Virus record (IMG/VR): IMGVR_UViG_3300005253_000053
Reading direction: 5' to 3' (one strand)
DNA: 64,000 bases
Source of the DNA: a virus
Taxonomy: Duplodnaviria > Heunggongvirae > Uroviricota > Caudoviricetes
Part shown: one piece after another, positions 19,083-54,076 of the stretch
Layout of the letters: the number at the start of each line of letters is the position of its first letter
Numbering within the stretch: position 1 is the first letter of the stretch
Notes under the pieces: generated by a model
Seen by the model: only the letters and a program-made list of their open reading frames with translations
Told to the model about the DNA's origin: nothing
The model's database searches: none
Position numbers and translations under genes: made by a program

Positions 19083-19112
19083 GTATATCGGATTGGGCGG
19101 GCAATTTCCCCA
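19083..19112 (-). promoter_or_regulatory. class A promoter motif (variant with 25-nt SD leader)
   Basis: plus: ctgtatatcggattgggcgggcaatttcc. Confidence 0.5.
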
Positions 19113-19173
19113 ACTTTTCTGCGACCTTGCCGGTTTGACATTCGCCAAGGCGAGGAGGTATAACGACTTGACC

Positions 19174-19563
19174 ATGGCTTACGGCATCGGACTACGTATC
19201 GAAGGGCACGACTGCGGGAACGCCGCGATCCTCCGCGACGAGGAGGCCGTCCAAGAACTGCTGGTGACCGCGATCCAGGTCGCAGACATGACCCTGCTGG
19301 CCGGGCCGTTCTGCACCGAAGAACTGACTCGGGACATCGGCAAGGGTCCCGGCCTCACAGCCTGCGCGATCCTGTACGAGTCCCACGTTGTCATCCACAC
19401 CTATCCGGAACAGCGGTGGTTCCTGTTCGAGATGACCACCTGCAAAGAGTTCGACTCGGTCCGTGTCGTCAATCTCCTGAGAGCCTGGGCCGACTGCAAG
19501 ACGGTCACCGACTGCACCGTCGTGGGCCACATGTTCCCCGAACCCGTTGAAGCGAATGGCTGA
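19174..19563 (+). CDS. speH: S-adenosylmethionine decarboxylase proenzyme (pyruvoyl-dependent, SpeH/SpeD class 1)
   Basis: GPGLTACAILYESHVVIHTYPE matches the AdoMetDC self-processing Glu-Ser site and the following HT(W/Y)PE block. Start set at MAYGIGL. Confidence 0.65.
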   Translation: MAYGIGLRIEGHDCGNAAILRDEEAVQELLVTAIQVADMTLLAGPFCTEELTRDIGKGPGLTACAILYESHVVIHTYPEQRWFLFEMTTCKEFDSVRVVNLLRAWADCKTVTDCTVVGHMFPEPVEANG

Positions 19564-19825
19564 TCTCCGCGAAACCATGCGCCGCGTCATGTGCCCGCTC
19601 ACCGAGCGTATGACACCCACATCCGTCGTTGGGCTGGCCCGAGCACACAGGCTGGCCGTCTCGGACGCTGAGGTGGTTGTGGACGAATACGGCAAGGACA
19701 AGATCACGCTCTTCCTGACGCAGCCCACCGAAGACAAGTACATCCGGGCCTTCAAGCGCGACCTGCGTAAACGCGATCCCCAAGCCGGTCAGGTCACCGT
19801 CCGAAGCCCAGGCGCAAGAAGGTAA
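19557..19825 (+). CDS. hypothetical protein co-oriented with speH
   Basis: ATGA overlap with the speH stop, 89 aa. Confidence 0.35.
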
Positions 19826-19830
19826 CCGCG

Positions 19831-21885
19831 CTACTTCGGTTTTTTGACCCTCGGGATATTCAGGTTCCCCGCGTGGTACTCCTCAGCCGCGATCAACATC
19901 GGTGCCCACTGGAGGTAGCCCGCCCGCGTGCGCGGGTCCTGAAAGAACTGCTTGTAGTCGCCGGGCTTGTACGCATCGACGTTGAACAGCCGGGACTCCG
20001 GAACGGTGACCGTGGTCCTGAGCGGGCTGTCGTCATCCCATCTGTACCGCCGAAACGACCGCCGCTCACGGAACCAGCGAAAGATGGCCTTCTTCGCCCA
20101 GGGCTGCCACTTGTCAATCTTGGCGATGTAGCCGGGACCTGGATTGCCGTACGGCTTGAAACGCTCATGCCGGTAGTCGCTCCGATTCCGCCAGTCACCG
20201 TCCAGGCGGTTGTTCTCTTTCTCCGCCTCCTTTTCCTGCCAGAGGCCGTCCTGGCCGATGACCACGCTGCCCGTCTTCAGCGATTCGTTGCACTTCCGGC
20301 GGTACGCCTCGAAGTCCGGACGCTCGCCCTCGTACAGCGTGTTGGAATCGTCGTAGACAAGTTCGAGGGCCTGCCCGAAACCTTCGGCACTCCAGAGCTT
20401 GACCGGAAGGTGCGGATGTAGAACATCGGAGCGGTCGAACAGACCTTGGACGATCAGCGCGATCCGGTTGTAGTGCTTGACCCGGTCCTCGACTTCCTTG
20501 AGCGCCTCGTCGAAGTACACGGAGGTGGAGTTGAACGGCTCCCACTCGTTTTCCCTGAAGCTGCTATGGAAATGCGTCTCGAAGTACCCGTCGTACGGAG
20601 CCTTGTCGAGAATATCCCTCCGCTCTCTTATCTGAAATTTGTTGAGATTGTGGGAGCTTTTCCGCAACCGCTTCGGCATGTTCTCTTTGAGCCACTTCTT
20701 CCGCCCCACCAGATTCCGTTTATGCGCAGCCTCAGCATCTGCGTGTTCCTTGCAGAGCGCCTTGAACTCACGGACCGGGATCATCTCCTCCACCTTGTCG
20801 AAGCTCATCTTCGCCATCATCGGTTCGGTCGGGTCGAAGATCTTCCCACTGGGAAACAGCATCAGCCCGAACTCCAGGTCGCACCCCATCCAGTAGACGC
20901 GCTCCCCATTTCGGATGTACAAGTAGGTTTTCTTGTCGGCGTTTTCCAACCCCATGTGGATAAATATCTTCTTCGGATCGCCGCCCCAGTCGCGCGCTTT
21001 CTTCTCCCGCCGAACTTTGAACGACACGATGCAGCGAGGGAATGGGAAGACCCGGTTCAAGTTCTCCGGCTCGCACAGCCATTTGTCGAACTTGTCGAGG
21101 CTATCAAAATCCATCCCACCAAGCTGGTAGTTGAGCAAGCACTCCTCGTCCATGTATAGGCGGCGCTGCATCAGATACAGTTTCTCGGAGATGTCAGCAG
21201 GCTCGCCCTTCTGGATCTGTTTCACGTCTTCAGTGAGACCTGCGTAGATGCTGACGTTGAAGATCCGATCCTGAATGTCATCGACGCAGGATTTCATTGC
21301 GCCTGCCATGGCCTCAAGCGGAACGGCCTCGGCCGACAACCACATCGCTAGGTTTTCATTGGCGCTCCTAATCTCGCTAAACAGTTTCGGAAGGTCCTCA
21401 TCCTTTGCCTTGACCAGCGCATTTTCGTACTTCTTGACGTTGTCGGTCCCGGAGAGCGTAACCAGGGCAGTGCTGGAAGACTCGCTGCGCTCTTCAATAC
21501 CGATCCGGCTACTCACACCCAGCCGGGCCGTGAGGGCTTTCACTTCGGCCATCTTCTCTTCGACCAGAGCTTTGTACTTGTGGACATTCCTACCGATTAC
21601 ATCCTTGGGCTTGGGCTCGTGACGCAGTTCATCGAAGAAGTCGTCGAAGTGAACCCGGCAGTGGCTCTGACCCTGGTGACCTCTCGGAGAATGAAGCTCG
21701 ACGTAGTTGGACCCGATCTCTGTGATGCAACCGAGCCACTCGTACTCGTAATCTTCGTATTTGTCAGTCTCTTCGTTGTACCTACTCTTGGTGTGCTTCA
21801 CCCAGTACCACTGACCGACCTCGGCACCACCTTCGGTGTCGAGGCGGTCAGTGACGGGATTGCGCTTGGCGACTTGCTTGGCCAC
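19831..21885 (-). CDS. large hypothetical protein (684 aa), operon partner of the GHKL ATPase
   Basis: K/R/W-rich, no recognisable motif. Its start lies 2 nt after the stop of 21887..23356. Confidence 0.6.
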   Translation of the reverse strand: MAKQVAKRNPVTDRLDTEGGAEVGQWYWVKHTKSRYNEETDKYEDYEYEWLGCITEIGSNYVELHSPRGHQGQSHCRVHFDDFFDELRHEPKPKDVIGRNVHKYKALVEEKMAEVKALTARLGVSSRIGIEERSESSSTALVTLSGTDNVKKYENALVKAKDEDLPKLFSEIRSANENLAMWLSAEAVPLEAMAGAMKSCVDDIQDRIFNVSIYAGLTEDVKQIQKGEPADISEKLYLMQRRLYMDEECLLNYQLGGMDFDSLDKFDKWLCEPENLNRVFPFPRCIVSFKVRREKKARDWGGDPKKIFIHMGLENADKKTYLYIRNGERVYWMGCDLEFGLMLFPSGKIFDPTEPMMAKMSFDKVEEMIPVREFKALCKEHADAEAAHKRNLVGRKKWLKENMPKRLRKSSHNLNKFQIRERRDILDKAPYDGYFETHFHSSFRENEWEPFNSTSVYFDEALKEVEDRVKHYNRIALIVQGLFDRSDVLHPHLPVKLWSAEGFGQALELVYDDSNTLYEGERPDFEAYRRKCNESLKTGSVVIGQDGLWQEKEAEKENNRLDGDWRNRSDYRHERFKPYGNPGPGYIAKIDKWQPWAKKAIFRWFRERRSFRRYRWDDDSPLRTTVTVPESRLFNVDAYKPGDYKQFFQDPRTRAGYLQWAPMLIAAEEYHAGNLNIPRVKKPK

Positions 21886-21886: not shown

Positions 21887-23356
21887 CTACGCTTCCTTGA
21901 ACTCGACCGGGAAGATCTCCGGCCGCTCCAGTGCGATCATCACCAGCTTCGCGCCCAGGCGCGTGCAGGCGTTGTAGTACCCCTCCGACAGGTGGTCGCT
22001 CTCGAACTCGTGAGCCAACTCGTGGATCACCAAGTCGGTCACCTTCTCCAGGTTGTCCGGGAACGCCTGGAACCACGCCCGTCCCAGGCGTCGCAAGTTG
22101 AACCGCAGATGCTTGCTGCCGTAGCACGCACCGTAGTTCTGCGGGTCGCGTACAATGTCGACCTCCGGCTCGAACCCCAGGAGCGCTTCGCCAACACGCT
22201 TCGTGTAGGCAATGATGGCCGTCATCTCGGACGTGAGATTCTTGACCCTGATGTCATCTCCATCAGCAGAGAAGATGGCCTTGCTGGTCGGGAACAAGAC
22301 CGAGGACGGCTCCATCGTCTCGAAGCGCTTGGCGTTGCCCCACTCTCCTGAACTGAGCGAGCCGCCCGCCAGGACCGAGAAGCCTTCCGACACGCCACGG
22401 CTGTTGGCCTCGGGGTCCTGTACAGACCAACTGGCGATGTCGTCCCCGTGCCGCTTGTGGATGACCTTGTCGAACGCCTCGGCCTCGATGTTCTCGTCGG
22501 ACGTGGCTGCCCGCACCCAGGCCGCGCCCGCATCGTCGTCTTCCAGTTCCTCGTGGAAGTTATTGACGATCTCGACGCGAAGTGCCTGAAGGTAGGACGG
22601 ACTCACGCTGTCACGGTCGCGCGGCAGCGGGACCTTCTGCTGGACATCGACATGCCACTTGTCGTCGGGCAGGTCACAGACGGGGATGCCCAGTTCGTAC
22701 AGACGCGGCGTGTCGCCCTCTTCAACCTCGTAGAGGACCACGCGCGTCTTGCGCCGGGTGCGACGCATATTGCCTTCATCGTCAGCAAGCTCCGTGGGGA
22801 GCGTGGCCGAGAACTCGCCCACCCTCTCAAGTATGGAGAGAGTCTCGCCGTTGATGATCGTGTGTACGCCTTCCGGCTGGATCACCGTGAACAAGACTTC
22901 CAGGGCTTCGGCGACCTCGTCCTTGTTCATGTAAACGTCGCCCTGGAAGATCGTGCCTCGCTCCAGACCCACGGTGCGCTTAACGCGACGCTGGCCGTCG
23001 GCCTTGAATGAAACGGTGCCCGTCACGGTCTCGATGACGGCACTCTTACAAAGCGAAAGGACTTCCTTTTCGCCGATGCAGAACCGCCCGCGCTTGCGCG
23101 GATCGCCGCGCCTTGATGTCCTCCCGTACAGAGTGTAAGAAGCACTCAAGTCCTCAAACCCGCGCGGGTCGTTGTCCGTGACCCGAATGTGCGCGAGGCC
23201 ACGAGACACGTGCTCGAACTCGACAAGTACATCGGTCGCGTCCGTGTCCCACGCATTGCCCAAGAGTTCCAGCGGTAAGAACGCTGACCCCCTTCGCCGG
23301 GCAACCTGGGCCAGCCCGGCCTTGTCCACCTCAAACCACTCGTTCTTCTTCGCCAT
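21887..23356 (-). CDS. GHKL-family ATPase with C-terminal HELAHE metal-binding motif
   Basis: Bergerat-fold motifs: N-box LELLGNAWDTDA, G1 VTDNDPRGF, G2 RGRFCIGEKE. C-terminal VIHELAHEFESDH (HExxH), reminiscent of zincin or the MutL DQHAxxE endonuclease motif. Confidence 0.6.
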   Translation of the reverse strand: MAKKNEWFEVDKAGLAQVARRRGSAFLPLELLGNAWDTDATDVLVEFEHVSRGLAHIRVTDNDPRGFEDLSASYTLYGRTSRRGDPRKRGRFCIGEKEVLSLCKSAVIETVTGTVSFKADGQRRVKRTVGLERGTIFQGDVYMNKDEVAEALEVLFTVIQPEGVHTIINGETLSILERVGEFSATLPTELADDEGNMRRTRRKTRVVLYEVEEGDTPRLYELGIPVCDLPDDKWHVDVQQKVPLPRDRDSVSPSYLQALRVEIVNNFHEELEDDDAGAAWVRAATSDENIEAEAFDKVIHKRHGDDIASWSVQDPEANSRGVSEGFSVLAGGSLSSGEWGNAKRFETMEPSSVLFPTSKAIFSADGDDIRVKNLTSEMTAIIAYTKRVGEALLGFEPEVDIVRDPQNYGACYGSKHLRFNLRRLGRAWFQAFPDNLEKVTDLVIHELAHEFESDHLSEGYYNACTRLGAKLVMIALERPEIFPVEFKEA

Positions 23357-23532
23357 GCGCTTCTCTCCTGCAAGAAGACCATGATGAATCTTGGGAGGCA
23401 GGGTTCCCCGTCGGTTCCCTTCTCAACCTGTCCGAAAGTAGAGTACCACAGTTCTACAGATTTGTCAATGATTTTCCATAACTTTTTATATGAGTCTCCA
23501 CGGGGCGCACTACGCCACCCACATGGCTCTAC

Positions 23533-23566
23533 CATGTATATCGGATTGGACCGGCTATTTCGCCAA
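23533..23566 (-). promoter_or_regulatory. class A promoter motif (about 175-nt leader to GHKL gene)
   Basis: plus: catgtatatcggattggaccggctatttcgcc. Confidence 0.5.
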
Positions 23567-23567
23567 G

Positions 23568-24257
23568 TTATTCGCCAGGGTTTTCCGGAGCGACCACAGG
23601 GGGTTTCTCAGGCGGAGCTTCCTTGGGATCTCCCGGGCTGGTCGCGGCCCGGTACGCAAGGTAGACGCCCAGGATCGCAGCCCCGATCCCACCAAGCCAG
23701 ATCGGGTTGAGGAACCATGGCACACCCAGCTTGCTGTACTTGTCGTCAGCCTTGGGATCGCCACCGTCGCCGGTTCCCTGGGACGGGATGCCCTGGCTCT
23801 GGTGGACCGGGTCCATCGACGGACGCCAGCCTCTCATCATCTCCTGGTTGATCGTCTCCAGGCCCTTCAGCTTCACGTGGATACGCTCGTTGCCAACGTG
23901 AAGCTGAAGGTCTTTCTCAAACTGCTTGATCTCACCTCGGATCTCGACGAAGACCTTCTCGTGCTCCGAGTCACTCATCCGTGATCCATTTTCGATCTCG
24001 CGGTCACGCTTCTCCAGCTTTTCTTCAAGGCGGTCCATCAGATCCTGGAGACGCTGGGCGACTCCGGAGATCTTCTTATCCAGGTCCTTACTCTCACTTT
24101 CGATGCGTGCGTAGAGCTTGCCAACTTCTTCGGTTATCTTCTTGCGGACATCGCGGTCCTCTTCCTCGCGCTCTCGACGTTCCTTGTCGATAGCCTCGCG
24201 AAGAGCCCGCTCCTTCCGCTCGATCTCGTCTCGGCGTTCTCGTTCTTGTCCGTCCAT
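23568..24257 (-). CDS. coiled-coil protein with C-terminal transmembrane helix
   Basis: Start set at MDGQERERRDEIERKERALRE. E/R/K heptad-rich. C-terminal VPWFLNPIWLGGIGAAILGVYLAY. Confidence 0.5.
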   Translation of the reverse strand: MDGQERERRDEIERKERALREAIDKERREREEEDRDVRKKITEEVGKLYARIESESKDLDKKISGVAQRLQDLMDRLEEKLEKRDREIENGSRMSDSEHEKVFVEIRGEIKQFEKDLQLHVGNERIHVKLKGLETINQEMMRGWRPSMDPVHQSQGIPSQGTGDGGDPKADDKYSKLGVPWFLNPIWLGGIGAAILGVYLAYRAATSPGDPKEAPPEKPPVVAPENPGE

Positions 24258-24540
24258 GGTTAGTCTCGCAGGACACAGTCGTCCCCGCCTCGGATTCGAT
24301 TGTAAACGAGATGGAGCCGCACGCCAACCGAAGAGATTATGTTGCGTAAGTAAGACCTTGCTTTTTACGGTCGGCGTTGATCTTGGAAATCTCTTTGTGG
24401 CGCTGCCGACCCTCGGGAGTTTCCTTCCAGGGCGTGCATCCGCCAACGCACCAGTCCGTGTCGACCGCCAGCTTGAGGCTGGCTTTGGCAAGAGCCGCAC
24501 GGGCCTCGTACCCTCCGAAGAGGGTGGAGTTGAGCATTCA

Positions 24541-24877: not shown

Positions 24878-24912
24878 ACATACCTGTATTATCGGATTGC
24901 GGGAGCAATTCC
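24878..24912 (-). promoter_or_regulatory. class A promoter motif
   Basis: plus: catacctgtattatcggattgcgggagcaattcc. The motif ATG is out of frame with the CDS here. Confidence 0.55.
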
Positions 24913-24946
24913 TTTAAGGAAAAATGGTGTAAAAATCCTTTTCTTG

Positions 24947-25164
24947 CTACTTTCCGCCGCAGGCCCGGGCTGCGTTGGCCACCGTGACCACCTCACGGAC
25001 CTTGCGAATCGCCACGGTCTGGTCGGCGCTCTCCGGCGTGTGGTCCCGGATAATCGTGGCGAACGTCTTCCCCGCGTCCCGGATCAACTTGTAGGCGACG
25101 ATGTCTTCGTCGTCCGGCGGGTGGTGGGTGAACCAGTTGTCCAGCATCTCGTCAGTGATCACTT
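24947..25164 (-). CDS. hypothetical small protein
   Basis: GTG start with AGGAG 8 nt upstream and a GTGA overlap with the upstream stop. Confidence 0.35.
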
Positions 25165-26519: not shown

Positions 26520-26930
26520 TTATCCTTTCAGAATGCCTCGATCCACCAGTTGCTGTAGGCCGTTGAAGCGCGGCGCAGGAACATCATCTCTCCAGATCCA
26601 CTGCGTATGCTTCGTGGACTCCGGATTCTGCGGCAAAATCCCCAAGTACGGCTTCGACTGGAGGATCGCGCACACGAAATCGTTCTCGTAGTCGACGTAG
26701 GTCATCAACGGCCGGTCGATTTCGACCATGATACCTACCTCTTCCAGGACCTCGCGGATGCCGGTCTGCTCGATAGTCTCGGTTCCCTCGACATGACCAC
26801 CGGGAAACTGCCACAAACCGTTGTACGGCTCGGCAATCCGCCTCGAAAGCAGGTGCTTCTCGGCCCTGAAGTCAACGATGCGTACCGCGACACTGACCGT
26901 TTTGCGTACGGGCGGAGGTTTCATACTCAT
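26520..26930 (-). CDS. NUDIX hydrolase
   Basis: Nudix box GGHVEGTETIEQTGIREVLEEVGI. Starts at the class A motif ATG. Confidence 0.75.
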   Translation of the reverse strand: MSMKPPPVRKTVSVAVRIVDFRAEKHLLSRRIAEPYNGLWQFPGGHVEGTETIEQTGIREVLEEVGIMVEIDRPLMTYVDYENDFVCAILQSKPYLGILPQNPESTKHTQWIWRDDVPAPRFNGLQQLVDRGILKG

Positions 26931-26962
26931 TACATCGGATTGGGACGCCTAAATCGGCAGGT
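26928..26962 (-). promoter_or_regulatory. class A promoter motif
   Basis: plus: catactcattacatcggattgggacgcctaaatcggc. Confidence 0.5.
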
Positions 26963-26977
26963 TTTCTATGACCTGGG

Positions 26978-28960: not shown

Positions 28961-29003
28961 GTAAGAGTCCCTACCCGTGTTATCGGATTGGGAAGGCTAT
29001 TTC
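28961..29003 (-). promoter_or_regulatory. class A promoter motif (variant lacking motif ATG)
   Basis: plus: gtaagagtccctacccgtgttatcggattgggaaggctatttcagc. Confidence 0.5.
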
Positions 29004-29011
29004 AGCAATAA

Positions 29012-29449
29012 TTATTGGAGATTCCACGAAACGGCCCACCCGTCGCCCGGTTTGCCTTCTCCGTCGACTTCGTGGTAGCTGGTGGCCGGAATTTCGTCGA
29101 TACTCTCAAACGCGGTCGCGGAGGGCGTCCCAAAGGCCGAGACCAAGGCCCGGTACGACTTTTGAGACGTCACATCCGCTTCGACCGTCTTCACGCCCCA
29201 CTCTTTCAACGACTGGGCTGCTTTTTGGGCCAGGAGCGTACCGTAGCCCCGGCCGCGATGTGCGGGCTTCACAAAAAGGTTGCCCAGGTGGGATTTCGTG
29301 TCGTCGAGAGTCTCAGTCGTCACGTGGCCGACTTCTTCGCCCGCAAGGTAGGCGCGAAGAGTCAGACCGCCCCAGGGAGCCTTCATCACCTGGAAAGTGA
29401 GGCCCCGGGCTTCGTTGAGGACGGTTCGGATGGCGCGTCGGGAATCCAT
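29012..29449 (-). CDS. GNAT acetyltransferase with N-terminal MDxRRAIRxxLxE tag
   Basis: MDSRRAIRTVLNEA... N-terminus, then GNAT motif A HRGRGYGTLL. Confidence 0.65.
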   Translation of the reverse strand: MDSRRAIRTVLNEARGLTFQVMKAPWGGLTLRAYLAGEEVGHVTTETLDDTKSHLGNLFVKPAHRGRGYGTLLAQKAAQSLKEWGVKTVEADVTSQKSYRALVSAFGTPSATAFESIDEIPATSYHEVDGEGKPGDGWAVSWNLQ

Positions 29450-29495
29450 GGCGGAGAGTATACCCGGATCACCAGATCAGGTAAAATAGGTCCCA
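29450..29495 (-). promoter_or_regulatory. class B promoter (GGGTATACT-N7-ATG)
   Basis: mRNA-sense TTTTACCTGATCTGGTGATCCGGGTATACTCTCCGCCATG. Confidence 0.5.
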
Positions 29496-31225: not shown

Positions 31226-31545
31226 CAGAAACGTCTCCCGGTCGGCCTGTCCTCGTTTTTACACGGCAAACGGGAGACCGTGAACGTGTCGATGACCTTC
31301 CCGTCGCGGACGCGGGCGTAGCCCCAGCACTTGGTCGGACCCTCGGCATCGACGCAGGGCCACTCCCAGGTCCAGCACTCGTCCTGGTCGGTGAAAAACA
31401 GTGTGAAGAGGCACCAAACAGGCAGCATGAGCGGGTGCACGGTGTACACCCGGCGCATACGGCCGTTGGTCGCGGCCTCCAGTTTGACCTTAATCCCCAG
31501 GGCCTCGGGAGGAACCACCCCGAACTTTGGTTTCGTGATCTTCAT
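31225..31545 (-). CDS. hypothetical protein with hydrophobic segment
   Basis: Start placed at the class A motif ATG (MKITKPKFG). The track's upstream extension translates the promoter motif (..KSDNIGM). Confidence 0.45.
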   Translation of the reverse strand: MKITKPKFGVVPPEALGIKVKLEAATNGRMRRVYTVHPLMLPVWCLFTLFFTDQDECWTWEWPCVDAEGPTKCWGYARVRDGKVIDTFTVSRLPCKNEDRPTGRRF

Positions 31546-31582
31546 GCCTATATTATCGGATTTGGGAGGCAAAATAGCCAAG
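31543..31582 (-). promoter_or_regulatory. class A promoter motif
   Basis: plus: catgcctatattatcggatttgggaggcaaaatagcc. Confidence 0.55.
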
Positions 31583-31707
31583 TTATTTCAGGCTGGGGCG
31601 ATCAAGTTCGACCCCAGAACTACTAACTTTCCGCAGTTTTATGTCGTAATCCACGCCGGACCTTGTATTTCCCCGCCCAGCCTCGATGACGATTCCGCCG
31701 ACCATTA

Positions 31708-32381: not shown

Positions 32382-32418
32382 CATACCTGTGTTATCGGAT
32401 TGGGGCAGCTATATCTCT
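32382..32418 (-). promoter_or_regulatory. class A promoter motif
   Basis: plus: catacctgtgttatcggattggggcagctatatctc. Confidence 0.55.
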
Positions 32419-32963
32419 TGGTAATTTTGAAAATTAGTAAACCGAACGGACCCTGACCACCTCCCCGTACTTCGAGGCCTTGTCCCGGGCCTATTCCTCG
32501 CAGTCCGCTTCGACCCGGTAATCGCGAGTGTACTTCGAGTCGGCAGGCTTCACCGTGACCAGGAAGTGGTACCGGATATGCTGACAGTGGATGTCAAGAT
32601 TGGTCAACGCTGCGGTCATTTCTCTATCTCCAAGAAGATCGAAGTGTTCTCTCCAACGTACGCCACAACCACGTTGAAGTCAAAAAATTCGTCCGCAGTT
32701 TTCCTCAGCGACAGCTTGAGTCATCTGCGCGCAAAGTTCTTCCTCGATAGTCGGGCGTGGGCGGACCCAACCCCAGAGCTTCTGGACGTGGACCCAGGAG
32801 CCCTTCCCGACGACGATCTCGTAAACCCTAGACAGGAAGAGGATGGCCCTGTCCTTGAACGTCGTCACGCAGTAGTAGATCTGAAAAGCGGATCAGCCAC
32901 AGTACTCTCCCAGCGCCAGCATCGCAATGCCGATCAGAATCCAGACCCACCCGTAGCTGTCAC

Positions 32964-33130: not shown

Positions 33131-33454
33131 TTACTCGCGAGCCATCACACCCAACGCTTGCCATACCAGCTTTCCGATCTCGTTCTCAATCTCGTCTTTG
33201 ATCCGCTCGAACAGGGGCTTCTGGTGCCGCCGTCCCCAGCGCCACGCCGTGCGGGCCTGCTGGTGAATACGCTTCTTCCTAATCCGCCGCCGTGCCTGCA
33301 ACTGCGTCCGCTGAACGAAGTTCTCTGGTGGCACCCACAGCAGCGGCCGATGGAAACCATGCAGGATGTAGGACAACTCCCACACCCACCGGAAGCGGCT
33401 GGGGCAGTCGACCATAGGCCACTCACGAGACTTCCATCCCCGGAGGTCATTCAT
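33131..33454 (-). CDS. hypothetical Arg/Trp-rich protein
   Basis: Start at the class A motif ATG (MNDLRGWKS). The track extension translates the motif (..QSDNIGM). Confidence 0.45.
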   Translation of the reverse strand: MNDLRGWKSREWPMVDCPSRFRWVWELSYILHGFHRPLLWVPPENFVQRTQLQARRRIRKKRIHQQARTAWRWGRRHQKPLFERIKDEIENEIGKLVWQALGVMARE

Positions 33455-38262: not shown

Positions 38263-38271
38263 CAGGTAAAT

Positions 38272-42464: not shown

Positions 42465-42530
42465 GGCAGGTCTCCTGGTAGGTGGCAGATAGTATACCCG
42501 ACCACCGGACAGGAGGCCAACAGTCAGATA

Positions 42531-46125: not shown

Positions 46126-46608
46126 TCACGCAATGGCAGGAAGCGTGACAGCGCGGAGCATCTCCAGGAGTTTGGGCCAATACTCCTCAACTGGAGATCC
46201 ATCTTCGATGTACCGCATGCAGTACACGAAATCCTCTTCGGAGCGTTTGGCATGCAACTCGACCCAACCCTTCGACTCCCAGTACTTTAGAACCTCAATA
46301 CGCTGCAAATACACCAACTCTGTGTGCAGCGCTTCCAACCGGCTTTGAGTGAAGTGGTGGCTATCCACAGTACTCAGCAGGCAGTTCCGGTCAACGACTT
46401 CCAGAATGGTCTCCAGGCTGAGCGTACCGACCAGGGCAGGTAGCTTCTTCAGCTTGTTCATAATCTCCAAGACCTGCTCATCGCGTACCGAGAAATCCCA
46501 GTCTTCCAGGATTCCCTGCACTGCGGTTCCCAGACTAGCTGCGGCCGTAAGCCGGTAGGCCTCCTCACAACGGGGCATCAGAATCCTGTCGTCATCTGGT
46601 CTGCTCAT
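46126..46608 (-). CDS. hypothetical protein, paralog of 39181..39672
   Basis: Starts at the class A motif ATG. Confidence 0.55.
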   Translation of the reverse strand: MSRPDDDRILMPRCEEAYRLTAAASLGTAVQGILEDWDFSVRDEQVLEIMNKLKKLPALVGTLSLETILEVVDRNCLLSTVDSHHFTQSRLEALHTELVYLQRIEVLKYWESKGWVELHAKRSEEDFVYCMRYIEDGSPVEEYWPKLLEMLRAVTLPAIA

Positions 46609-46645
46609 AACAGTATTATCGGATCGGGGCGGCTATTTAGCCAAG
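46606..46645 (-). promoter_or_regulatory. class A promoter motif (canonical: TTGGCT-N18-GATAAT-N6-ATG)
   Basis: plus: cataacagtattatcggatcggggcggctatttagccaa. Confidence 0.55.
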
Positions 46646-46650
46646 GAAAA

Positions 46651-48564
46651 TTATCCGGCAGCGTTTAACCGCTCAACCGCCTTGGAGAACGCAAGAACAC
46701 GTAAGTAGGTAGTGTCTCTCACTTTTCCTGAAATCGCCTCGATGATCTTTTTTGCAGTACACTCGGCGATCCTGGCCCCTCTGGACAGTTCCTTCACAGA
46801 GTATCCCGCACACAGCGAGCGCATCACATGCGTGTCGACGAACACGGGAAGGTCCTCCCAGTGCCGGAGGCATACCTGCATCAGCATCCGCTTAAACAAA
46901 TCCTTTTCCACACTGACCTGGGCACGCGCTATGCCGGAGACAAGCGCGCTGCCCTTCCGAGCCCTAGGTTGCCGTGGGCGATTTACCTTCGGACGCTTGA
47001 CCACGCGAGTCCTCGCCTCTTTCAAGGCCTCGGCCGCTTGCGTGATCTGATCAGCCCAGTGCTGCCGAACCCGACGGCCGGGCTTGTCCAAGTCGTAGAG
47101 GTACTCGTAAATGGTGTACCGTTTCATCCCGGTCACTTCCGCTACAACGCTGGCGGCCATCCCTCGAATCAGTGGCGCAATCTCCGAGAGCAGCACCGAC
47201 CGTATAGGATTACAACGCAGTTGTACTTCCCGAGCCACCTTCGCTGCACAAGCACCCACGCAGTACCGGGACCGCCAGTTGAGCGGGAGGTCCGCCTTGC
47301 AGACGCAACACGCACGATAAGCCAGGGGCAGGTCTGGGCGAACGGTACCAAAAGCTGCCTGACTCACACGAACAATTCCCACGCTGACCTCGGCCACAAC
47401 CTTTTGCTGCGTCTGCCCGGCGGCGTAGCGTTCGCGGATATCGCGGATGAGATCGTCATCGTCGAACCAATCCGGCTTTGGCTCTCGCAGCAACGCCTGT
47501 AACCGATACCGCTCCTTCTGCTTGGCTTCTACGAATTTCTCCAAACATTTCGTAGAACAATAAACCCAGCGACTGGGCGGCAAAGGAGACTTCCCACACT
47601 GCTTACATACGGTGCCAACCTGACTTTCCTTCCGCTCCTTCTTTAGCTCCCTCGACCGCCGAACCCCAGCGACCGCGCGCACCTGGGCGTGTCCCGCCGC
47701 GACACACTCACCCGTACAGTACTTGATGTACTTTCTTGGTCTTCCGAATCGGACGTAGAAGCGGTTGCATTTCGCACACCGTGGAGCGACCCGACCGCGA
47801 CGCGTTCGCTGCTTCTTGCTTGGTGTAACCGGTTTATTGCCTATGAGGAAGTTTGCCGCATCTGCCTGCATTCCGTCGTAAGCGACGTCCAGCGCGGCTT
47901 TGCGAAGACGCACGCGCATAGCCTTCTGCCCACAGCCCCTACGCTGCGTCGAGCTTGGGCAGAACAGGGGCAGCTTGCCACCCTTCGGCGGTCGGCGAGC
48001 TTTGAATGTTTTTTCACAGTGCGCACAGACGATACTGATTGCACGAAGCGGGATCAGGGGAAGGTGCTTGTACGTCTTTCCAACCGCGACAGCGTATACC
48101 GATGCCGAGCAGACATCGAACTCCTCGGCCAGGGAATAGGATGTCTGACCATCCGCCCAACGATCCCGGACTTCCATTACCTCGGCGTCGCTAAACAGTC
48201 CTCTACTGCCCCGACGACTCCGCCCTCTCGGGATAGTCCTTGCCCGGACGTCGTTTTCTATGGCACGCGCCTTACGGATTGCATACTTGGACGCGGCCTC
48301 ACCGATCTGAGGGTACAGCGCCCGGTAGCTCCGCTTCTTAACGACGTCTTTGCAGGCGTCGTCACAGTACTGCTGATTGTAATTCTCGGCGTAAAAAGGC
48401 CCCTCGCAGGCGTTACACTCTCGGGCAGTGTCCCAGGCCCAGGTCTTACCCCGCAAAATATTACCGACGCAGGACTTATCTACGCTGTACGTCTTCGCAA
48501 TACGTGCCCGGCTCCACCCCTGCCGGGCGCGCTTCCGAATCAGATCCGCCCGGCGGCGAGTCAT
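46651..48564 (-). CDS. multi-HTH / multi-zinc-finger DNA-binding protein
   Basis: Three repeats of R(W/Y)A.GQT...(I/V)A......V....V (HTH-like). More than six CxxC pairs. Start set at MTRRRADLIRK (ATGA-coupled). Confidence 0.5.
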   Translation of the reverse strand: MTRRRADLIRKRARQGWSRARIAKTYSVDKSCVGNILRGKTWAWDTARECNACEGPFYAENYNQQYCDDACKDVVKKRSYRALYPQIGEAASKYAIRKARAIENDVRARTIPRGRSRRGSRGLFSDAEVMEVRDRWADGQTSYSLAEEFDVCSASVYAVAVGKTYKHLPLIPLRAISIVCAHCEKTFKARRPPKGGKLPLFCPSSTQRRGCGQKAMRVRLRKAALDVAYDGMQADAANFLIGNKPVTPSKKQRTRRGRVAPRCAKCNRFYVRFGRPRKYIKYCTGECVAAGHAQVRAVAGVRRSRELKKERKESQVGTVCKQCGKSPLPPSRWVYCSTKCLEKFVEAKQKERYRLQALLREPKPDWFDDDDLIRDIRERYAAGQTQQKVVAEVSVGIVRVSQAAFGTVRPDLPLAYRACCVCKADLPLNWRSRYCVGACAAKVAREVQLRCNPIRSVLLSEIAPLIRGMAASVVAEVTGMKRYTIYEYLYDLDKPGRRVRQHWADQITQAAEALKEARTRVVKRPKVNRPRQPRARKGSALVSGIARAQVSVEKDLFKRMLMQVCLRHWEDLPVFVDTHVMRSLCAGYSVKELSRGARIAECTAKKIIEAISGKVRDTTYLRVLAFSKAVERLNAAG

Positions 48565-49202
48565 CTTTTGCGTTTTTTGCTTGCCTTGGTGCGCAATAGC
48601 TGTTGGATCTTCTTGATCACGGTGCCCCGAGTGACGCGGTACCGCGTTCCGGTCGACATAATGGCCCATACGACGCCCTTGTCATCCAGTTCCGCGTCCG
48701 CGACGAACGGGACGGTCTTGCGGGTCCGGTTGAGCGGCAGCTTCGGCCTAGTGAACCCGAGCGCATCCGACAGAGGACGCGGGTCGGCGATCTCCAGGGC
48801 TTTGTCGATGGCCTTGTCGATCTTGACCCGGGTGATGCCGCCCTGGTTCTGCTTGACCCGCAGCATGTTCAGGTAGCTCGCACCGATCCCGCGCATCATG
48901 GCCACCTTGAGCGACTTGTCGGGCAGGTTCCCCCGGCCGACTTCGAGCATCACCTTGAGGTGCTCCAGGCTGCGGAACAGGACGCCGTGCTCGACGAGGC
49001 AGCGGTCCGTGAACTTGACGAACTCCTCGGGGGGCAGCTTATCAGACACTTCGACCATGATGTACGAGACCTCCAGAAGGAAGTCGGACTCGGCCTCCCC
49101 GTACTGGTCGATGATGCGCATCGCGGCGGCTGCGGACTTGACTGCGCGGATCTCCTTCATCGTGGTGTAGGACAGCTTGCGGCGCGTTTTAACTTTGGGC
49201 AC
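48561..49202 (-). CDS. hypothetical basic protein
   Basis: 213 aa. Confidence 0.5.
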   Translation of the reverse strand: MPKVKTRRKLSYTTMKEIRAVKSAAAAMRIIDQYGEAESDFLLEVSYIMVEVSDKLPPEEFVKFTDRCLVEHGVLFRSLEHLKVMLEVGRGNLPDKSLKVAMMRGIGASYLNMLRVKQNQGGITRVKIDKAIDKALEIADPRPLSDALGFTRPKLPLNRTRKTVPFVADAELDDKGVVWAIMSTGTRYRVTRGTVIKKIQQLLRTKASKKRKR

Positions 49203-49635
49203 GGTGCTTCTCCTTGTGTGGAGGTAACATTTTGTACGTAGATTCCATCAGGTCCACCTCGACCAGCTTCGCCAGTTCGTCCGGTAGGGCCATGATGCTC
49301 GTGATGATGTCAAAGTGGTCGGTGACGCCTTCTGCGGTGATGCCATCAGACATGCCGTCCGCGATCCAGTCCATCAGGATCAGGAAGTCCGTCAGATCGT
49401 AGGCAAACCCACTGTCTGCGTGTCGACGCTCCCAATAGCGATCCAGGTACTTCTCGGCGCGGACAACTGCCCCAGCATCGCACAGGGAGGGGTACGCATC
49501 GCAGTGCTGAACGGTCATCTGCTCGACGGTGGCCGTCAGCCACTGCTTGATCTCGTAGCCAGTGCAGATATCAGCGATCTGGGGTACTTCGGCGTCCATA
49601 CCTGTATCATCGGGGTGGCCGGAATCGAAGCTCAT
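49189..49635 (-). CDS. hypothetical acidic protein
   Basis: Starts at the class A motif ATG. Confidence 0.5.
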   Translation of the reverse strand: MSFDSGHPDDTGMDAEVPQIADICTGYEIKQWLTATVEQMTVQHCDAYPSLCDAGAVVRAEKYLDRYWERRHADSGFAYDLTDFLILMDWIADGMSDGITAEGVTDHFDIITSIMALPDELAKLVEVDLMESTYKMLPPHKEKHRAQS

Positions 49636-49671
49636 AATAGTACTATCGGATTCGGACAGCTATTTGGTCAG
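49633..49671 (-). promoter_or_regulatory. class A promoter motif
   Basis: plus: cataatagtactatcggattcggacagctatttggtca. Confidence 0.55.
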
Positions 49672-49684
49672 GTAATTTTGTGGG

Positions 49685-51195: not shown

Positions 51196-51414
51196 TCAGG
51201 CCACGTGGCCTGTCGGTTTCTTGATGGACTCCTCCAGGACGGCCTTCACCTCGATGCGCCAGCGCCCGTGCCAACCGCACTTGTCACAATCCAGAGTCAG
51301 ATCCTCGTCGCGACCCATGTGCCCGCAGTCTACGCTGAACTTCGAGCCGCAGCCCGGACAGGTGGCCCTCACGTGCATGTGGCTAATTTCGCAGTAGTCG
51401 ATCTTGACGTCCAT
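51196..51414 (-). CDS. zinc-ribbon mini-protein
   Basis: CPGCG..C..CDKCG. Starts at the class A motif ATG. Confidence 0.5.
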   Translation of the reverse strand: MDVKIDYCEISHMHVRATCPGCGSKFSVDCGHMGRDEDLTLDCDKCGWHGRWRIEVKAVLEESIKKPTGHVA

Positions 51415-51451
51415 AACAGTGTTATCGGATCGGGACGGCTATTTGGTCAGA
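51412..51451 (-). promoter_or_regulatory. class A promoter motif
   Basis: plus: cataacagtgttatcggatcgggacggctatttggtca. Confidence 0.55.
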
Positions 51452-51487
51452 TAATTTTGCGGGTCAGAGGAGGGAGAGAAATTTCGC

Positions 51488-51823: not shown

Positions 51824-51885
51824 GGGCAGCAGTATACCTGGATATTCGAGGATTGCGAAATTGAAACGGGCAAAAATTTTGTGTG
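51824..51885 (-). promoter_or_regulatory. class B promoter (GGTATACT-N7-ATG) with upstream AAAATTTT element
   Basis: mRNA-sense CACACAAAATTTTTGCCCGTTTCAATTTCGCAATCCTCGAATATCCAGGTATACTGCTGCCCATG. Confidence 0.5.
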
Positions 51886-51887
51886 GC

Positions 51888-52376
51888 TCAGGTCTGTAGG
51901 TCCAGGCGCAGGAAGATGGCTTCGTAATTCTCCCGGGACTCGCGATGCGTCTCCACAAAGCCAAAACGCTCGTACAAGTGGTGGGCCGCCCGCTCGTCGT
52001 CGAGATCAGACGTAAACAGCTTGAGGCACTCGTAGCCCTCATCCTTGGCCCGCTGAATCGTGAAGCGCAGCAAATCGGTCCCCAGGCCCTGCTTCCGGTG
52101 GTCGGGATGAACGCAGAACCAACCGACCCAGATCGCCTCGGGCGTAGGAATCTCGTTGTAGAAGCCAGTAACCCCAGTGACCACACCGTTTTCAATAGCA
52201 ACCCAGTAGCGAATGTCGGAGCACTCGTGGGCTTCCATGAAATCGGTGTGGGACCCAGGACGGGTGGCCTCCTCAAAGCAGCGCTTGATGGATTCCTGGT
52301 CATCGTCCTTGAACACCTGCTGCGTCAACAGCATGGCCTGATCGGCGAACTCAGCGGTGAGCGGCAAGGGCTTCAC
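51888..52376 (-). CDS. GNAT acetyltransferase
   Basis: VHPDHRKQGLGTDLL (motif A). Start placed at the class A motif GTG. Confidence 0.6.
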   Translation of the reverse strand: MKPLPLTAEFADQAMLLTQQVFKDDDQESIKRCFEEATRPGSHTDFMEAHECSDIRYWVAIENGVVTGVTGFYNEIPTPEAIWVGWFCVHPDHRKQGLGTDLLRFTIQRAKDEGYECLKLFTSDLDDERAAHHLYERFGFVETHRESRENYEAIFLRLDLQT

Positions 52377-52410
52377 AACAGTATTATTGGATCGGAAGGC
52401 CTGTTTACCC
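52374..52410 (-). promoter_or_regulatory. class A promoter motif (GTG variant)
   Basis: plus: cacaacagtattattggatcggaaggcctgtttaccc. Confidence 0.45.
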
Positions 52411-52917
52411 AAGGAAATCCGACTCGGGAAACCTCTTCGCGCGTCGCATGAGAGCCTCAGGCGTCATCCGGGGGTGCATCAGGTCGGTGACATCGACCTT
52501 GATGGCCTCCCGCTGATCCCAGACGTCGAGGTAGACCGTGTCGCCCAGCGTCAGGCCGGGCAGCAGGACGCGCAGGCGATTCAGAACCTCGGAGTCGAGC
52601 GTGGGCACCGTAATCCCGTCGTCGTAGCCGCGAATCCAGCCGTGTTCTAGCGCTTCGGCCTCAACCCGTTGGCGGTCGTGGGGATCGTCGGAAACCGTGC
52701 TCACCTCGTCCAGCAACTCCTCGATGCCCGGGTCGCCAGGGTACATCTCAGGAAAGCGCCTCAAGGCCTCAGCGGCGTGCGTCGTCCAGCCACTCCCAGT
52801 CCAGCCACTCCCAATGTTGATGTACTCGCCGTCGGGCAGGAGCCACCAGCGGCCCAGCCATGTGGACTCGCGGGCCTCGGTGAGGATGGAACGGATGGCG
52901 TGACGGGTGGAATCCAT
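52405..52917 (-). CDS. MDxTRxAIRxxLxE-tagged protein, paralog of 52917..53441
   Basis: MDSTRHAIRSILTEA... WWLLPDGEYINIGSGW and HGWIRGYDDG blocks shared with the neighbour. Confidence 0.6.
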   Translation of the reverse strand: MDSTRHAIRSILTEARESTWLGRWWLLPDGEYINIGSGWTGSGWTTHAAEALRRFPEMYPGDPGIEELLDEVSTVSDDPHDRQRVEAEALEHGWIRGYDDGITVPTLDSEVLNRLRVLLPGLTLGDTVYLDVWDQREAIKVDVTDLMHPRMTPEALMRRAKRFPESDFLG

Positions 52918-53441
52918 TAGGCCTGCCGCGTGACTTGGGCAGGATGCTTTGCCAGCAGAACCGTCTCCACATCGGCGTACATGTACCCACTGCCATATTC
53001 GAGCAGGATTTTGCCCTTCGTGGCACCCCGGTCGAGCAGGAACGTCTGTATACGCCTCAGCGACTCAGCATCGAACTCCAGCATGTCGAAGCCGCCGGTA
53101 TCGGTTACACGAATCCAGCCATCCCGGATCGCCACCTGCTCAGGGTTGTTCATGTAGCGCGCGACGAAGTCAGGCTTCTTGGCGTACTCCCGAGCAATAT
53201 CGGCGTGGACGTCGTACCAGGGGCCGTCGAAGGTCTCGTCCATGATGTCCTGCTCAGAGGCCGACAGGAACCCCCAGTCGATCTCAGCAGCGACGGCCAG
53301 AGCAGCCGCCTCGTGATTCCAGCCACTGTCTTCAACAGTCACAACCTCGCCATCAGGCAGAATCCAGTAATCAGCACGGAGCACGTCGGCAGCATCGGAC
53401 TCAGTGAGCAGCTTTCGGATGGCGTGACGGGTCTGATCCAT
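52917..53441 (-). CDS. MDxTRxAIRxxLxE-tagged protein, paralog of 52405..52917
   Basis: MDQTRHAIRKLLTES... YWILPDGEVVTVEDSGW, DGWIRVTDTG. Confidence 0.6.
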   Translation of the reverse strand: MDQTRHAIRKLLTESDAADVLRADYWILPDGEVVTVEDSGWNHEAAALAVAAEIDWGFLSASEQDIMDETFDGPWYDVHADIAREYAKKPDFVARYMNNPEQVAIRDGWIRVTDTGGFDMLEFDAESLRRIQTFLLDRGATKGKILLEYGSGYMYADVETVLLAKHPAQVTRQA

Positions 53442-53505
53442 GGCGAAAACATCATATCAGGGAATCCGGGGATCTCGAAATTGAAACGGCCCAAAATTTT
53501 GTGTG
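53442..53505 (-). promoter_or_regulatory. class B promoter variant (TATGAT-N9-ATG) with AAAATTTT element
   Basis: mRNA-sense GAACACACAAAATTTTGGGCCGTTTCAATTTCGAGATCCCCGGATTCCCTGATATGATGTTTTCGCCATG. Confidence 0.45.
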
Positions 53506-53511
53506 TTCGGA

Positions 53512-54041
53512 TCAGGCCTCATCCCGTTGGATAGCCTCGTCAAGCGCCTTTACCCAGCCCGACCACTTGTTGTGCCTGCGCTGCGTTGTTTCGAGAGACG
53601 TCTCGGCACGCCGGATCTGTCTGGTGTCGGCCTCCTTACGGGCCTTGTTAAGCCACTCTTGAGCGTTGCGAAGGCGGGTCTCAGTCTGCACCTGATATTT
53701 GTAGCAGTAGCCGCGCAGGCTCGCCAGAGGGGAGGTGTGCAGTTCCATACCGCAGTGCGGACAGAAGCGGGTGTCTCGGTTTTGTCCGCAACAGAAACGA
53801 CGTCCGGCCATGGGGAGAGGACCGATCATACCACGTGCCCAGGTACTGATCTCGGCCTCCGTCGCCGAACCGCAGCGGGGGCGCGCGAGCAAGCGAACAG
53901 ACAAGGCCTCGCGCGGGTGCTCGCCGTCAAGCAGGTCGCGGCCGACTTTTATGTCAGATGAGGATAAGACATTCTTCGCCCCGGTAGTCAGGTCGTCGAA
54001 GCCCGGCAAGTCTCGCACAGGTGTGTCCAGCGGGACGTCCA
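53512..54041 (-). CDS. zinc-ribbon protein
   Basis: Start at the class A motif ATG (MDVPLDTPV). CCGQNRDTRFCPHCG. Confidence 0.5.
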
Positions 54042-54076
54042 TAACAGTATTATCGGCCTGCGAGGGCAATTTGGGC
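54039..54076 (-). promoter_or_regulatory. class A promoter motif
   Basis: plus: cataacagtattatcggcctgcgagggcaatttgggc. Confidence 0.5.

Follow-up and report, generated by a model that had tools for sequence, protein, structure and literature searches.

The DNA described here is a window of 64,000 nucleotides from the tailed-virus record IMGVR_UViG_3300005253_000053, and the element in question, which we call class A, is a promoter-like motif of about 45 bp that occurs in it 16 times. As judged from the sequence, class A copies are quite probably bacterial promoters of the sigma70 family that yield leaderless mRNAs. The chances that they are read by a dedicated sigma factor, and not by the primary sigma of the host alone, appear nearly even. 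The source of the motif is an uncultured jumbo phage with a T4-type capsid, about 83 kb of whose genome of at least 225 kb was visible to the analysis. This kind of element is already known; the class A instance and its possible phage-encoded sigma are new. That the motif is a promoter giving leaderless mRNA had been proposed in the initial annotation of this DNA, and every sequence-level test that was run (location, orientation, geometry and absence of a Shine-Dalgarno sequence) supported the proposal.

When the 16-nt core CCCRATCCGATAATAC was searched for with up to three mismatches, 13 matches were obtained against 0.62 expected, and none of 100 shuffled sequences reached 13. An iterated 60-nt weight matrix retrieved 16 sites from the window, scoring between 37.7 and 71.5 bits. 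On rescanning the window at a low threshold the scores were bimodal; since no site in it scored between 8 and 35 bits, class A is a discrete class. All 16 copies align without a gap. The minus-strand 60-mers have their low ends at 19070, 23523, 24874, 26917, 28965, 31538, 32377, 33447, 38222, 39665, 46601, 49628, 51407, 52369 and 54035, and the single plus-strand 60-mer occupies 57969-58028. The 15 copies listed in the initial annotation were thus all recovered by the weight-matrix scan. The statement that the motif lies entirely on the minus strand is correct for those 15 but fails for the class as a whole, on account of the sixteenth. Three further copies were found past the right end of the window, on a contig that reaches 8.5 kb beyond it, giving at least 19 copies in about 72 kb. 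The structural region yielded no copy, nor did the 5-6 kb that adjoin the window on its left. It may be noted that at 3736-3821 of contig L052 (about 68.7 kb in window coordinates) two class A promoters of opposite strands are set back to back; they overlap in an inverted repeat that takes in the -35 and upstream parts of both, and a leaderless ATG follows each.

The columns of the element were counted over 26 sites, pooled from the phage and related phages, with +1 at the A of the ATG. An A/T-rich tract at -44 to -38 precedes a -35 element of the form yTGnCn. The -35 element had earlier been read as TTGGCT/TTGACC; it exists, but only T-35 (25 of 26) and G-34 (19 of 26) are well kept. The spacer contains a box, AAAT(A/T)GCC, made up of AAA at -30 to -28, T or A at -27 and -26, and GCC at -25 to -23, and AAT follows at -17 to -15. 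Conservation is very high in the -10 region (C-14 in 24, C-13 in 26, G-12 in 25, A-11 in 26, T-10 in 25 and A-9 in 24 of the 26 sites) and weaker at its end (A-8 in 17, T-7 in 16), after which A-6 is again kept in 24; the extended -10 element is AATCCGATAAT. Among the 16 window copies the invariant columns are G-25, C-14, C-13, A-11 and T-10. The spacing is fixed: the hexamers stand 18 nt apart, and the start codon lies 7 nt after the -10. The two blocks and the ungapped 18-nt spacer agree with the layout of sigma70-family promoters (two blocks, fixed spacer of 16-19 bp), and in a generic consensus scan several copies matched the sigma70 consensus at 9 of the 12 hexamer positions. A pyrimidine is present at -1 in 24 and a purine at +1 in all 26 sites, copies without a start codon there included. 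Because this preference persists without a start codon, +1 would be the transcription start, beyond being merely a translation start.

The two sub-variants noticed earlier, ACAGGT and ACTGTT, proved to be real and are grouped by region: ACAGGT-like copies lie at 24-38 kb and ACTGTT-like copies at 46-54 kb, and ACTGTT is likewise the sub-variant of a related contig that corresponds to the 54-58 kb region. The fold z-scores of the 16 copies ranged from -3.1 to +0.7 and were mostly about 0, with no structure in common; the idea of the motif as a structured RNA or terminator was rejected on this ground. The lowest value belongs to copy 39665, where a strong hairpin is followed by a U-rich run and may double as the terminator of the upstream unit. 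In the A/T-rich upstream part of four copies (39680-39720, 46640-46660, 52410-52425 and 57975-57985) CGGAT(T/A) was seen, which repeats in inverted form the core ATCCG some 33 nt distant.

The orientation of class A was that of the downstream gene for all 16 copies in the window, for all three beyond its right end and for all eight in relatives. The copies occupy short intergenic gaps, the stop codon of the upstream gene often lying 2-40 nt before the -35, and they are confined to the heads of gene runs. Far from being distributed equally over both strands or lying inside genes, the copies are intergenic, and the plus-strand copy precedes one of the few plus-strand genes; a divergent pair serves two diverging gene runs. 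An in-frame start codon stands exactly 7 nt after the -10 in 12 of the 16 copies (ATG in 11, GTG in one), opening reading frames (ORFs) of 36-332 amino acids (aa). For the 15 copies listed earlier the number is 11 (10 ATG and one GTG), the same as had been claimed. At the remaining four the gene start lies 11-17 nt further on, with a clear GGAGG in one case, or 174 nt further on behind a second promoter. Class A-linked starts have no Shine-Dalgarno sequence, the predicted anti-Shine-Dalgarno pairing being about 0 kcal/mol; many other genes of the phage have GGAG, GAGG or GGAGG upstream. In its sequence features the set thus looks as leaderless genes do, with an in-frame start at +1, AUG preferred and no Shine-Dalgarno sequence. 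From the sequence we infer promoter activity and the exact 5' end of the transcripts.

Ten of the copies with a start codon at +1 have an ATG on the minus strand. The copy at 26922-26968 (49.9 bits) has its leaderless ATG at 26924, for a NUDIX protein of 134 aa. Those at 31543-31589 (57.6 bits; TTGGCT-18-GATAAT in the consensus scan), 32382-32428 (64.7 bits) and 33452-33498 (63.6 bits; TTGCCG-18-GATAAT) have leaderless ATGs at 31545, 32384 and 33454 for ORFs of 106, 36 and 107 aa, respectively. They are followed by 38227-38273 (59.7 bits; ATG 38229, 97 aa) and by 39670-39716 (ATG 39672, 163 aa), the weakest copy of all at 37.7 bits, with a poor -35 and spacer. The copy at 46606-46652 (69.5 bits; TTGGCT-18-GATAAT) has its ATG at 46608 for a 160-aa ORF and heads a run of co-oriented genes of about 7 kb. 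Those at 49633-49679 (69.1 bits; ATG 49635, 148 aa), 51412-51458 (71.5 bits; ATG 51414, a zinc-ribbon-like ORF of 72 aa) and 54040-54086 (56.1 bits; ATG 54042, 176 aa) likewise have leaderless ATGs. At 52374-52420 (minus strand, 48.8 bits) the leaderless start is a GTG, at 52376, for a GNAT acetyltransferase of 162 aa. The proteins of 160 and 163 aa, encoded on the minus strand at 46126-46608 and 39181-39672, are paralogues; both genes come first after a class A copy and have leaderless starts, so that the promoter-plus-gene unit has been duplicated.

The four copies with offset starts, all on the minus strand, behaved as had been described earlier. At 19075-19121 (45.6 bits; -35 at 19108-19113, -10 at 19084-19089, predicted +1 a G at 19077) a leader is present, and GGAGG precedes an ATG about 17 nt downstream that opens a PolX-thumb gene. 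The copy at 28970-29016 (62.4 bits) has its +1, an A, at 28972 and an ATG 12 nt downstream, which makes a short leader. For 24879-24925 (54.3 bits; +1 at 24881) the ATG at +1 opens an ORF of only 10 codons, and the gene behind it likely starts at ATG 24870, so that the offset at this copy and at 28965 is about 11-12 nt. The copy at 23528-23574 (54.3 bits; predicted +1 at 23530) lies 174 nt upstream of a gene for a GHKL-type ATPase, which has its own TTGACA-17-TACTCT promoter between the copy and the gene start.

The plus-strand copy, 57977-58023 (55.7 bits; ATGACC-18-GATAAT), has a leaderless ATG at 58021 for an ORF of 332 aa (58021-59019, plus strand). The public annotation of this gene, LCGC14_0163720, gives 344 aa from an ATG at 57985, which lies inside the promoter, as against the 332 aa predicted from the motif. 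The motif would thereby correct the start of at least this leaderless gene, and automatic gene callers probably mis-start several of the genes led by class A. No close relative of the 332-aa protein was found in the protein collection, where its single other match was 26% identical over half its length.

A second set of promoters, class B, was found in the same genome. These are canonical, of the type TTGACA-17-TA(T/C)ACT, often with GG just upstream, and they lie on the minus strand at 29457-29485, 51831-51859, 60156-60184, 53451-53478, 57257-57285, 24299-24327, about 42480-42500 and about 23400-23430. Three of them (29485-29457, 51859-51831 and 60184-60156) have an ATG or GTG 7 nt after the -10 and hence are leaderless. 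Leaderless expression is therefore not peculiar to class A, and the host is presumably tolerant of it. The others have leaders with a Shine-Dalgarno sequence (GGAG), including those of the GHKL gene and of the 329-aa gene described below, and several precede genes of a family with a shared MDxTR N-terminus, to which we return. Class A differs from class B at -14 to -12 (CCG versus GGT), in the length of the spacer (18 versus 17 nt) and in its content. Primary sigma reads a -10 of TATAAT and requires T-12, A-11 and T-7. Class B has these three bases, whereas class A, with A-11 in every site, has G-12 in 25 of 26 and T-7 in only 16. A T4-like late-promoter candidate, TATAAAAAGT, was rejected, as it occurred only twice, no more than by chance.

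The candidate reader of class A is a protein of 329 aa with a sigma domain-2 fold, encoded at 56227-57216 on the minus strand, in the midst of the class A cluster. In the consensus scan its gene was found to have a class B promoter (TTGACG-17-TATGGT, 57257-57285, minus strand), with a leader of about 40 nt that contains GCAGGAG; a promoter of the form TTGAC(A/G)-17-TAnnnT and the leader are kept in four related contigs, L055-L058. For this protein seven relatives were found at 52-80% identity, together with 17 remote homologues of full length. When its first 190 residues were modelled with AlphaFold, the pLDDT was about 80 in the N-terminal four-helix domain, and Foldseek placed sigma factors on top, SigL first, without significance. 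Below the family thresholds, Sigma70_r2 matched 5 of 20 family members (best E 0.0098) and TIGR02937 matched 4 of 20 (best E 0.0029), and no other family recurred. The 329-aa protein itself did not match Sigma70_r2/r4 or TIGR02937, the curated thresholds not being reached, and its searches against Pfam, PHROGs and PDB sequences gave nothing usable; Pfam, PHROGs and NCBIfam searches of the visible proteins also returned no sigma. In the family alignment, the C-terminal FDxKxxADYLG...VRxAWxxL looks like the helix-turn-helix (HTH) of region 4.2.

We regard the 329-aa protein as a plausible, though unproven, reader of class A. Two points limit this assignment: nothing links the protein to class A rather than to late promoters, and about 83 kb of the genome of at least 225 kb was visible. 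With a sigma-like gene of such a fold, such a family and a canonical promoter, the layout suits a cascade in which the host sigma would give rise to the phage sigma and this in turn would read class A. Two multi-HTH zinc-ribbon proteins, of 672 and 241 aa, were considered as regulators and rejected, as they resemble homing endonucleases of the HNH or endonuclease VII type.

Relatives were sought by motif and by protein. A degenerate motif pattern of 41 bits gave no match in JGI metagenomes and IMG/VR. The pattern ATCCGATAAYAYNNKTATG gave 44 loci in IMG/VR, which were dismissed as chance matches together with an unrelated 43%-GC repeat in IMGVR_UViG_641201329; only three of these loci scored 19-28 bits, and all lacked the motif's upstream half. 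That viral genome, IMGVR_UViG_641201329_000001 (156,922 bp, 43-47% G+C; L008, L032 and L035), carries at least six copies of a repeat of more than 70 nt containing ATCCGATAACACATGTATG, which is unconnected with class A. In IMG/VR, protein-guided scans that started from the GHKL protein, from the 332-aa protein, from a remote homologue of the sigma-like protein or from the sigma-like alignment were without result, and JGI metagenomes likewise yielded no relatives. As the motif was absent from these IMG/VR and JGI metagenome searches, relatives were reached via proteins instead.

The motif occurs on four contigs of related metagenomic phages, drawn from two samples; SRR24204710 and GCA_044343095.1 contain such relatives. 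Contig L048 is syntenic with the window, its GHKL protein being 78% identical, and has three motif-like copies on its gene strand. The one at 8066 precedes a PolX-thumb gene and is the positional match of window copy 19070. Two contigs of SRR24204710 (sigma-like protein 77% and GHKL protein 78% identical) contain five class A copies, two of them exactly at called gene starts. In L060 the counterpart of copy 23523 is 98% identical, versus only 78% for the GHKL protein. The L055 copy at 4019 is 88% identical to copy 54035, and both have the copy-specific deviation CGCAGGCCGAT. Thus positional counterparts are 98%, 88% and 67% identical to the window copies, as against an average of 61% and a maximum of 80% for paralogous copies within the window, no two of which are identical and whose flanks cannot be aligned. 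Because the positional counterparts are closer than the paralogues and keep their deviations, the copies appear to be old, inherited one by one and under selection. In L049-L051, where the GHKL protein is about 50% identical, the contigs are not syntenic and the motif is absent. The conservation beyond the hexamers had been put down either to a dedicated phage factor or sigma or to the recent spread of a promoter cassette. The CCGAT core, the separate class B and the sigma-fold protein favour the former, and the identities speak against the latter.

Two observations on the relatives concern the surroundings of the core. At 5884-5920 and 9445-9480 of L055, two class A copies share a conserved 5'-UTR: between core and ATG each has one and the same leader of some 35 nt, (T)CGTTACTT(T)CGTTGCCyGGAGACC. 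An upstream module, CACACAAAATTTTnGnCCGTTTCAAnTTTC, precedes class B cores in the window (51824-51887 and 53442-53511) and in L056 (about 3100-3165), and the same module precedes class A cores in L055 (about 3990-4060 and 5815-5885); the core class therefore seems exchangeable on a common upstream element.

Other explanations of class A have to be weighed. The copies could be ordinary promoters of the host primary sigma, in which the AAATAGCC box and the AATCC upstream of GAT form the site of a phage regulator that switches the set together, much like the MotA box of T4 middle promoters or an early shut-off operator. The hexamers, matching the sigma70 consensus at 9 of 12 positions, and the 18-nt spacer are as this would require. 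The AAAT(A/T)GCC box, at -30 to -23, lies where sigma normally reads no bases, a subset of copies has the inverted CGGAT(T/A) upstream of the core, and the phage has T4-type capsid genes. We nevertheless consider the explanation rather unlikely, though a serious competitor: G-12 (25 of 26) and the infrequent T-7 (only 16 of 26) fall at positions that are highly constrained for a primary sigma, a separate and better-matching canonical class exists in the same genome, and Pfam and PHROGs gave no regulator candidate, the two multi-HTH proteins resembling homing endonucleases. If a sigma-independent RNA polymerase of the phage, single-subunit or of the multisubunit jumbo-phage type, were the reader, one would understand that the strongest conservation runs unbroken from -20 to -6, as in T7-type promoters; most of the genome of at least 225 kb, moreover, is outside view. 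The element is bipartite, however, reaching to -45 with a sigma-like -35/-10 spacing, the 83 kb or so examined contain no RNA polymerase gene, and the presence of the sigma-fold protein implies use of the host core enzyme, all of which makes such a polymerase highly improbable.

The history of the copies bears on the proposal that class A is a mobile promoter cassette, recently spread by recombination, whose conservation reflects its youth. The copies do flank many small genes without known relatives, homing-endonuclease-like genes (46651-48669 and 54086-54811) adjoin two of them, and the pair formed by promoter and gene has been duplicated in the 160-aa and 163-aa paralogues. Yet paralogous copies average 61% identity, reach 80% at most and are never identical, with unalignable flanks, while the counterparts in relatives, at fractions of 0.67-0.98, are closer and keep copy-specific deviations; no hairpin is shared, the fold z-scores centring on about 0. 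A recent cassette is hence very unlikely. A protein-binding site other than a promoter, such as a stoperator-type repressor site or a site for replication, partition or packaging, would suit the asymmetry of the repeats and their orientation along transcription, both of which are traits of stoperators. It would leave aside the fixed distance to the start codon, the -1 pyrimidine and +1 purine, the -35/-10 geometry and the restriction of the copies to the heads of gene runs, never within genes, and we give it scarcely any credence. The faintest chance is that the virus infects an archaeon, in which case AAATAG at -30 to -25 would be the TATA box and the mRNAs would be leaderless in the haloarchaeal manner. 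Such a box, AAAT(A/T)G, does stand at TATA-box distance from the start, and in some archaea leaderless mRNAs are the norm (PMC3986360). But the archaeal pattern of B recognition element and TATA box, with its main block around -26 and little near -10, is not the one seen, conservation peaking at -17 to -9, away from the TATA position. Canonical TTGACA-17-TATACT promoters, widespread GGAGG, the sigma-fold protein, the Acb2/Tad1-type domain and DnaA-box-like repeats also argue for a bacterial setting.

With class A taken as sigma70-family promoters for leaderless mRNAs, each copy would head one transcription unit in the non-structural part of the genome, and transcription would start at the purine 7 nt after the -10. 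As this +1 purine is the first base of the start codon in 12 of the 16 copies, the first gene of those units would be translated from a leaderless mRNA; the downstream genes of a unit would use ordinary Shine-Dalgarno sites. The sigma-fold protein (56227-57216) would first be made from its canonical host-type promoter and would then read class A, in a two-step cascade. More speculatively, an uncultured jumbo-phage lineage might encode a sigma family that is very divergent and hitherto unrecognised, with proteins of about 300-330 aa that combine a sigma domain 2, a beta-rich insertion and an HTH at the C-terminus. At least 19 promoters would form its private regulon, and by their geometry they would force transcription to begin at the start codon.

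The closest documented scheme is that of the phiEco32/7-11 group. In phage phiEco32 (gp36) and Salmonella phage 7-11 (gp47) a divergent phage sigma, together with the host core enzyme, reads a few highly similar promoters, which in 7-11 are bipartite; the start lies 6-9 bp from the promoter element, and early promoters use the host primary sigma (PMC8948821). That scheme accommodates the two promoter classes of the present phage and its sigma-fold gene, which has a host-type promoter. Class A differs in being longer (about 45 bp) and more numerous (at least 19 in about 72 kb), and its reader is here only a candidate, a 329-aa protein with no sequence similarity to known sigmas above family thresholds. 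It also serves non-structural, and not late, genes and is coupled to leaderless translation, a term ('leaderless') absent from the text of PMC8948821. Among bacterial sigma classes two invite comparison with class A, and both do so through its CCGAT core, which is near-invariant.

Promoters of sigma28 (FliA/SigD/WhiG) have a -10 of GCCGATAA and a -35 of TAAA 15 nt upstream. The class A sequence tCCGATAA (TCCGATAA) matches this -10 consensus at 7 of 8 positions, conservation declining from CCGAT through A and A to T. Where TAAA is due, however, class A has G(G/A/C)C(C/T), and the nearest AAA(T) is 11-12 nt upstream, 3 nt too close. Extracytoplasmic function (ECF) promoters have a -35 with AAC, a spacer of 16-17 nt and a -10 with CGT or CGA; class A has CGA(T) 17 nt after the yTGnCn block and no AAC motif. 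Because the -35 is neither a properly spaced TAAA nor AAC, no membership of class A in the sigma28 or ECF classes is claimed.

Leaderless genes with a -10 element adjacent to the ORF occur also in Actinobacteria, and the large Thermus myovirus phiYS40 reportedly expresses many (middle/late) genes as leaderless mRNAs. In Deinococcus-Thermus, a -10 element beside the ORF at a fixed short distance is the promoter of leaderless genes, which exist alongside genes with GGAG (PMC12340547). Class A shares with the Deinococcus-Thermus genes the fixed short distance between the -10 and the start codon. It departs from the Deinococcus-Thermus type in that its -10 is GATAAT after an invariant CC, and not TANNNT, and that it has a full -35 and a conserved spacer. 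The early and middle promoters of T4 are conserved beyond the hexamers and have an A/T-rich upstream part, the middle ones with a box near -30. A T4-type capsid gene and many small genes of unknown function, each with its own conserved promoter of long footprint, recall this phage; T4 mRNAs, in contrast, have leaders, and the class A -10 is off the primary-sigma consensus at -12. Unlike the promoter-plus-stem-loop cassettes of T4 type, class A has no associated stem-loop and no sign of recent mobility. The stoperators of cluster A mycobacteriophages are numerous, asymmetric repressor sites of 13-14 bp, oriented with transcription and in many cases far from promoters. Class A repeats are likewise numerous, asymmetric and oriented with transcription, but they possess -35/-10 geometry and a fixed distance to the start codon.

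If this reading of class A holds, the motif marks transcription units in an uncultivated jumbo phage of Loki's Castle sediment, namely those of its non-structural half. On the more speculative view of a divergent sigma family, the non-structural programme would be transcribed by the phage's own sigma and translated without Shine-Dalgarno pairing, and could thus go on after the phage has disabled host initiation. Two cleanly contrasting promoter classes in one genome are the usual signature of a temporal switch. Class A also offers a precise DNA target for the in vitro study of the candidate phage sigma family, for which no culturing is needed. To our knowledge, systematic use of leaderless mRNAs by phages is documented in few systems only, and another independent case would help show how widespread the strategy is. 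Current understanding is not overturned by class A, which is a well-defined new instance; what is uncommon in it is the pairing of a sigma28/ECF-like -10 with a sigma70-like -35, together with its systematically leaderless starts.

Exact copies of window proteins are recorded as LCGC14_0163010, LCGC14_0163710 and LCGC14_0163720, from the Loki's Castle GC14 marine-sediment metagenome, and are also present in the ENA and Logan assemblies of SRR1555743 and SRR1555744. Of the contigs bearing such proteins the longest has 224,854 bp, and the G+C content of the genome is 57-64%. A gene for a major capsid protein of the T4 Gp23 type lies at 5128-6633, and the prohead protease of T4 was matched weakly. 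The capsid protein is at most 30% identical to those of isolate phages, and a near-identity DNA search with 12 kb against 50,697 phage records gave no match. Large structural genes fill the left 17 kb of the window. Rightward of 19 kb numerous small genes follow, almost all on the minus strand and the majority without known relatives; dispersed among them are NUDIX, GNAT, GDP-mannose dehydratase, PolX-thumb and Acb2/Tad1-hairpin domains, as well as homing-endonuclease-like genes. By our own gene calls about 12% of the window is non-coding. It contains no tRNA genes, and these therefore give no clue to the host.

The GHKL-ATPase-like protein (489 aa; 21887-23356, minus strand) has a C-terminal HExxH-like motif, and the gene next after it encodes a 684-aa protein (19831-21885, minus strand) without detectable domains. 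The GHKL family comprises at least 177 homologues, found on contigs as long as 557 kb and also in genomes and metagenome-assembled genomes of many phyla, Planctomycetota being frequent. An attempt to infer the host through this family failed: the best genome matches were only 37-43% identical and were dispersed across many phyla, again with Planctomycetota frequent. A small protein with an Acb2/Tad1 hairpin domain is encoded at 24947-25162 (minus strand) and is kept in L048 (1637-1918), L059 (1492-1707) and L060 (1632-1910); members of this hairpin family are anti-CBASS and anti-Thoeris sponges. The three homing-endonuclease-like genes (46651-48669 and 54086-54811 on the minus strand, 55477-56004 on the plus strand) are of the HNH or endonuclease VII kind, with HTH and zinc-ribbon repeats. 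The one for 672 aa has atypical codon usage, and both minus-strand genes stop 7-8 nt ahead of a class A -35.

Nine otherwise unlike proteins of 111-321 aa share an N-terminus of about 15 residues, MD(S/A/Q/P)TR(H/Q/K/T)(A/V)IR(K/S)(L/I)L(T/L/Y/N)E. Their genes start, on the minus strand, at 29449, 40142, 41107, 41481, 41957, 51823, 52917, 53441 and 59756. The L-x-E at the end of the shared peptide resembles two elements of T4: the motif cleaved by its prohead protease, and the sequence that targets its internal proteins to the capsid. By this analogy, the MDxTR proteins may be packaged in the capsid and injected along with the DNA.

A non-coding stretch of 750 bp at 57217-57968, between diverging genes, contains DnaA-box-like repeats of the TGTGGATAA type and other short repeats, and may be a replication origin. 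When the TGTGGATAA nonamer was counted over the whole window with up to one mismatch, 15 occurrences were found versus 6 expected, just two of them within 57217-57968. Counterparts of this region are present in L055 (930-1545), L056 (600-1200), L057 (1-400) and L058 (1-750), in which repeats of the TGTGGATAA type are more abundant than in the window.

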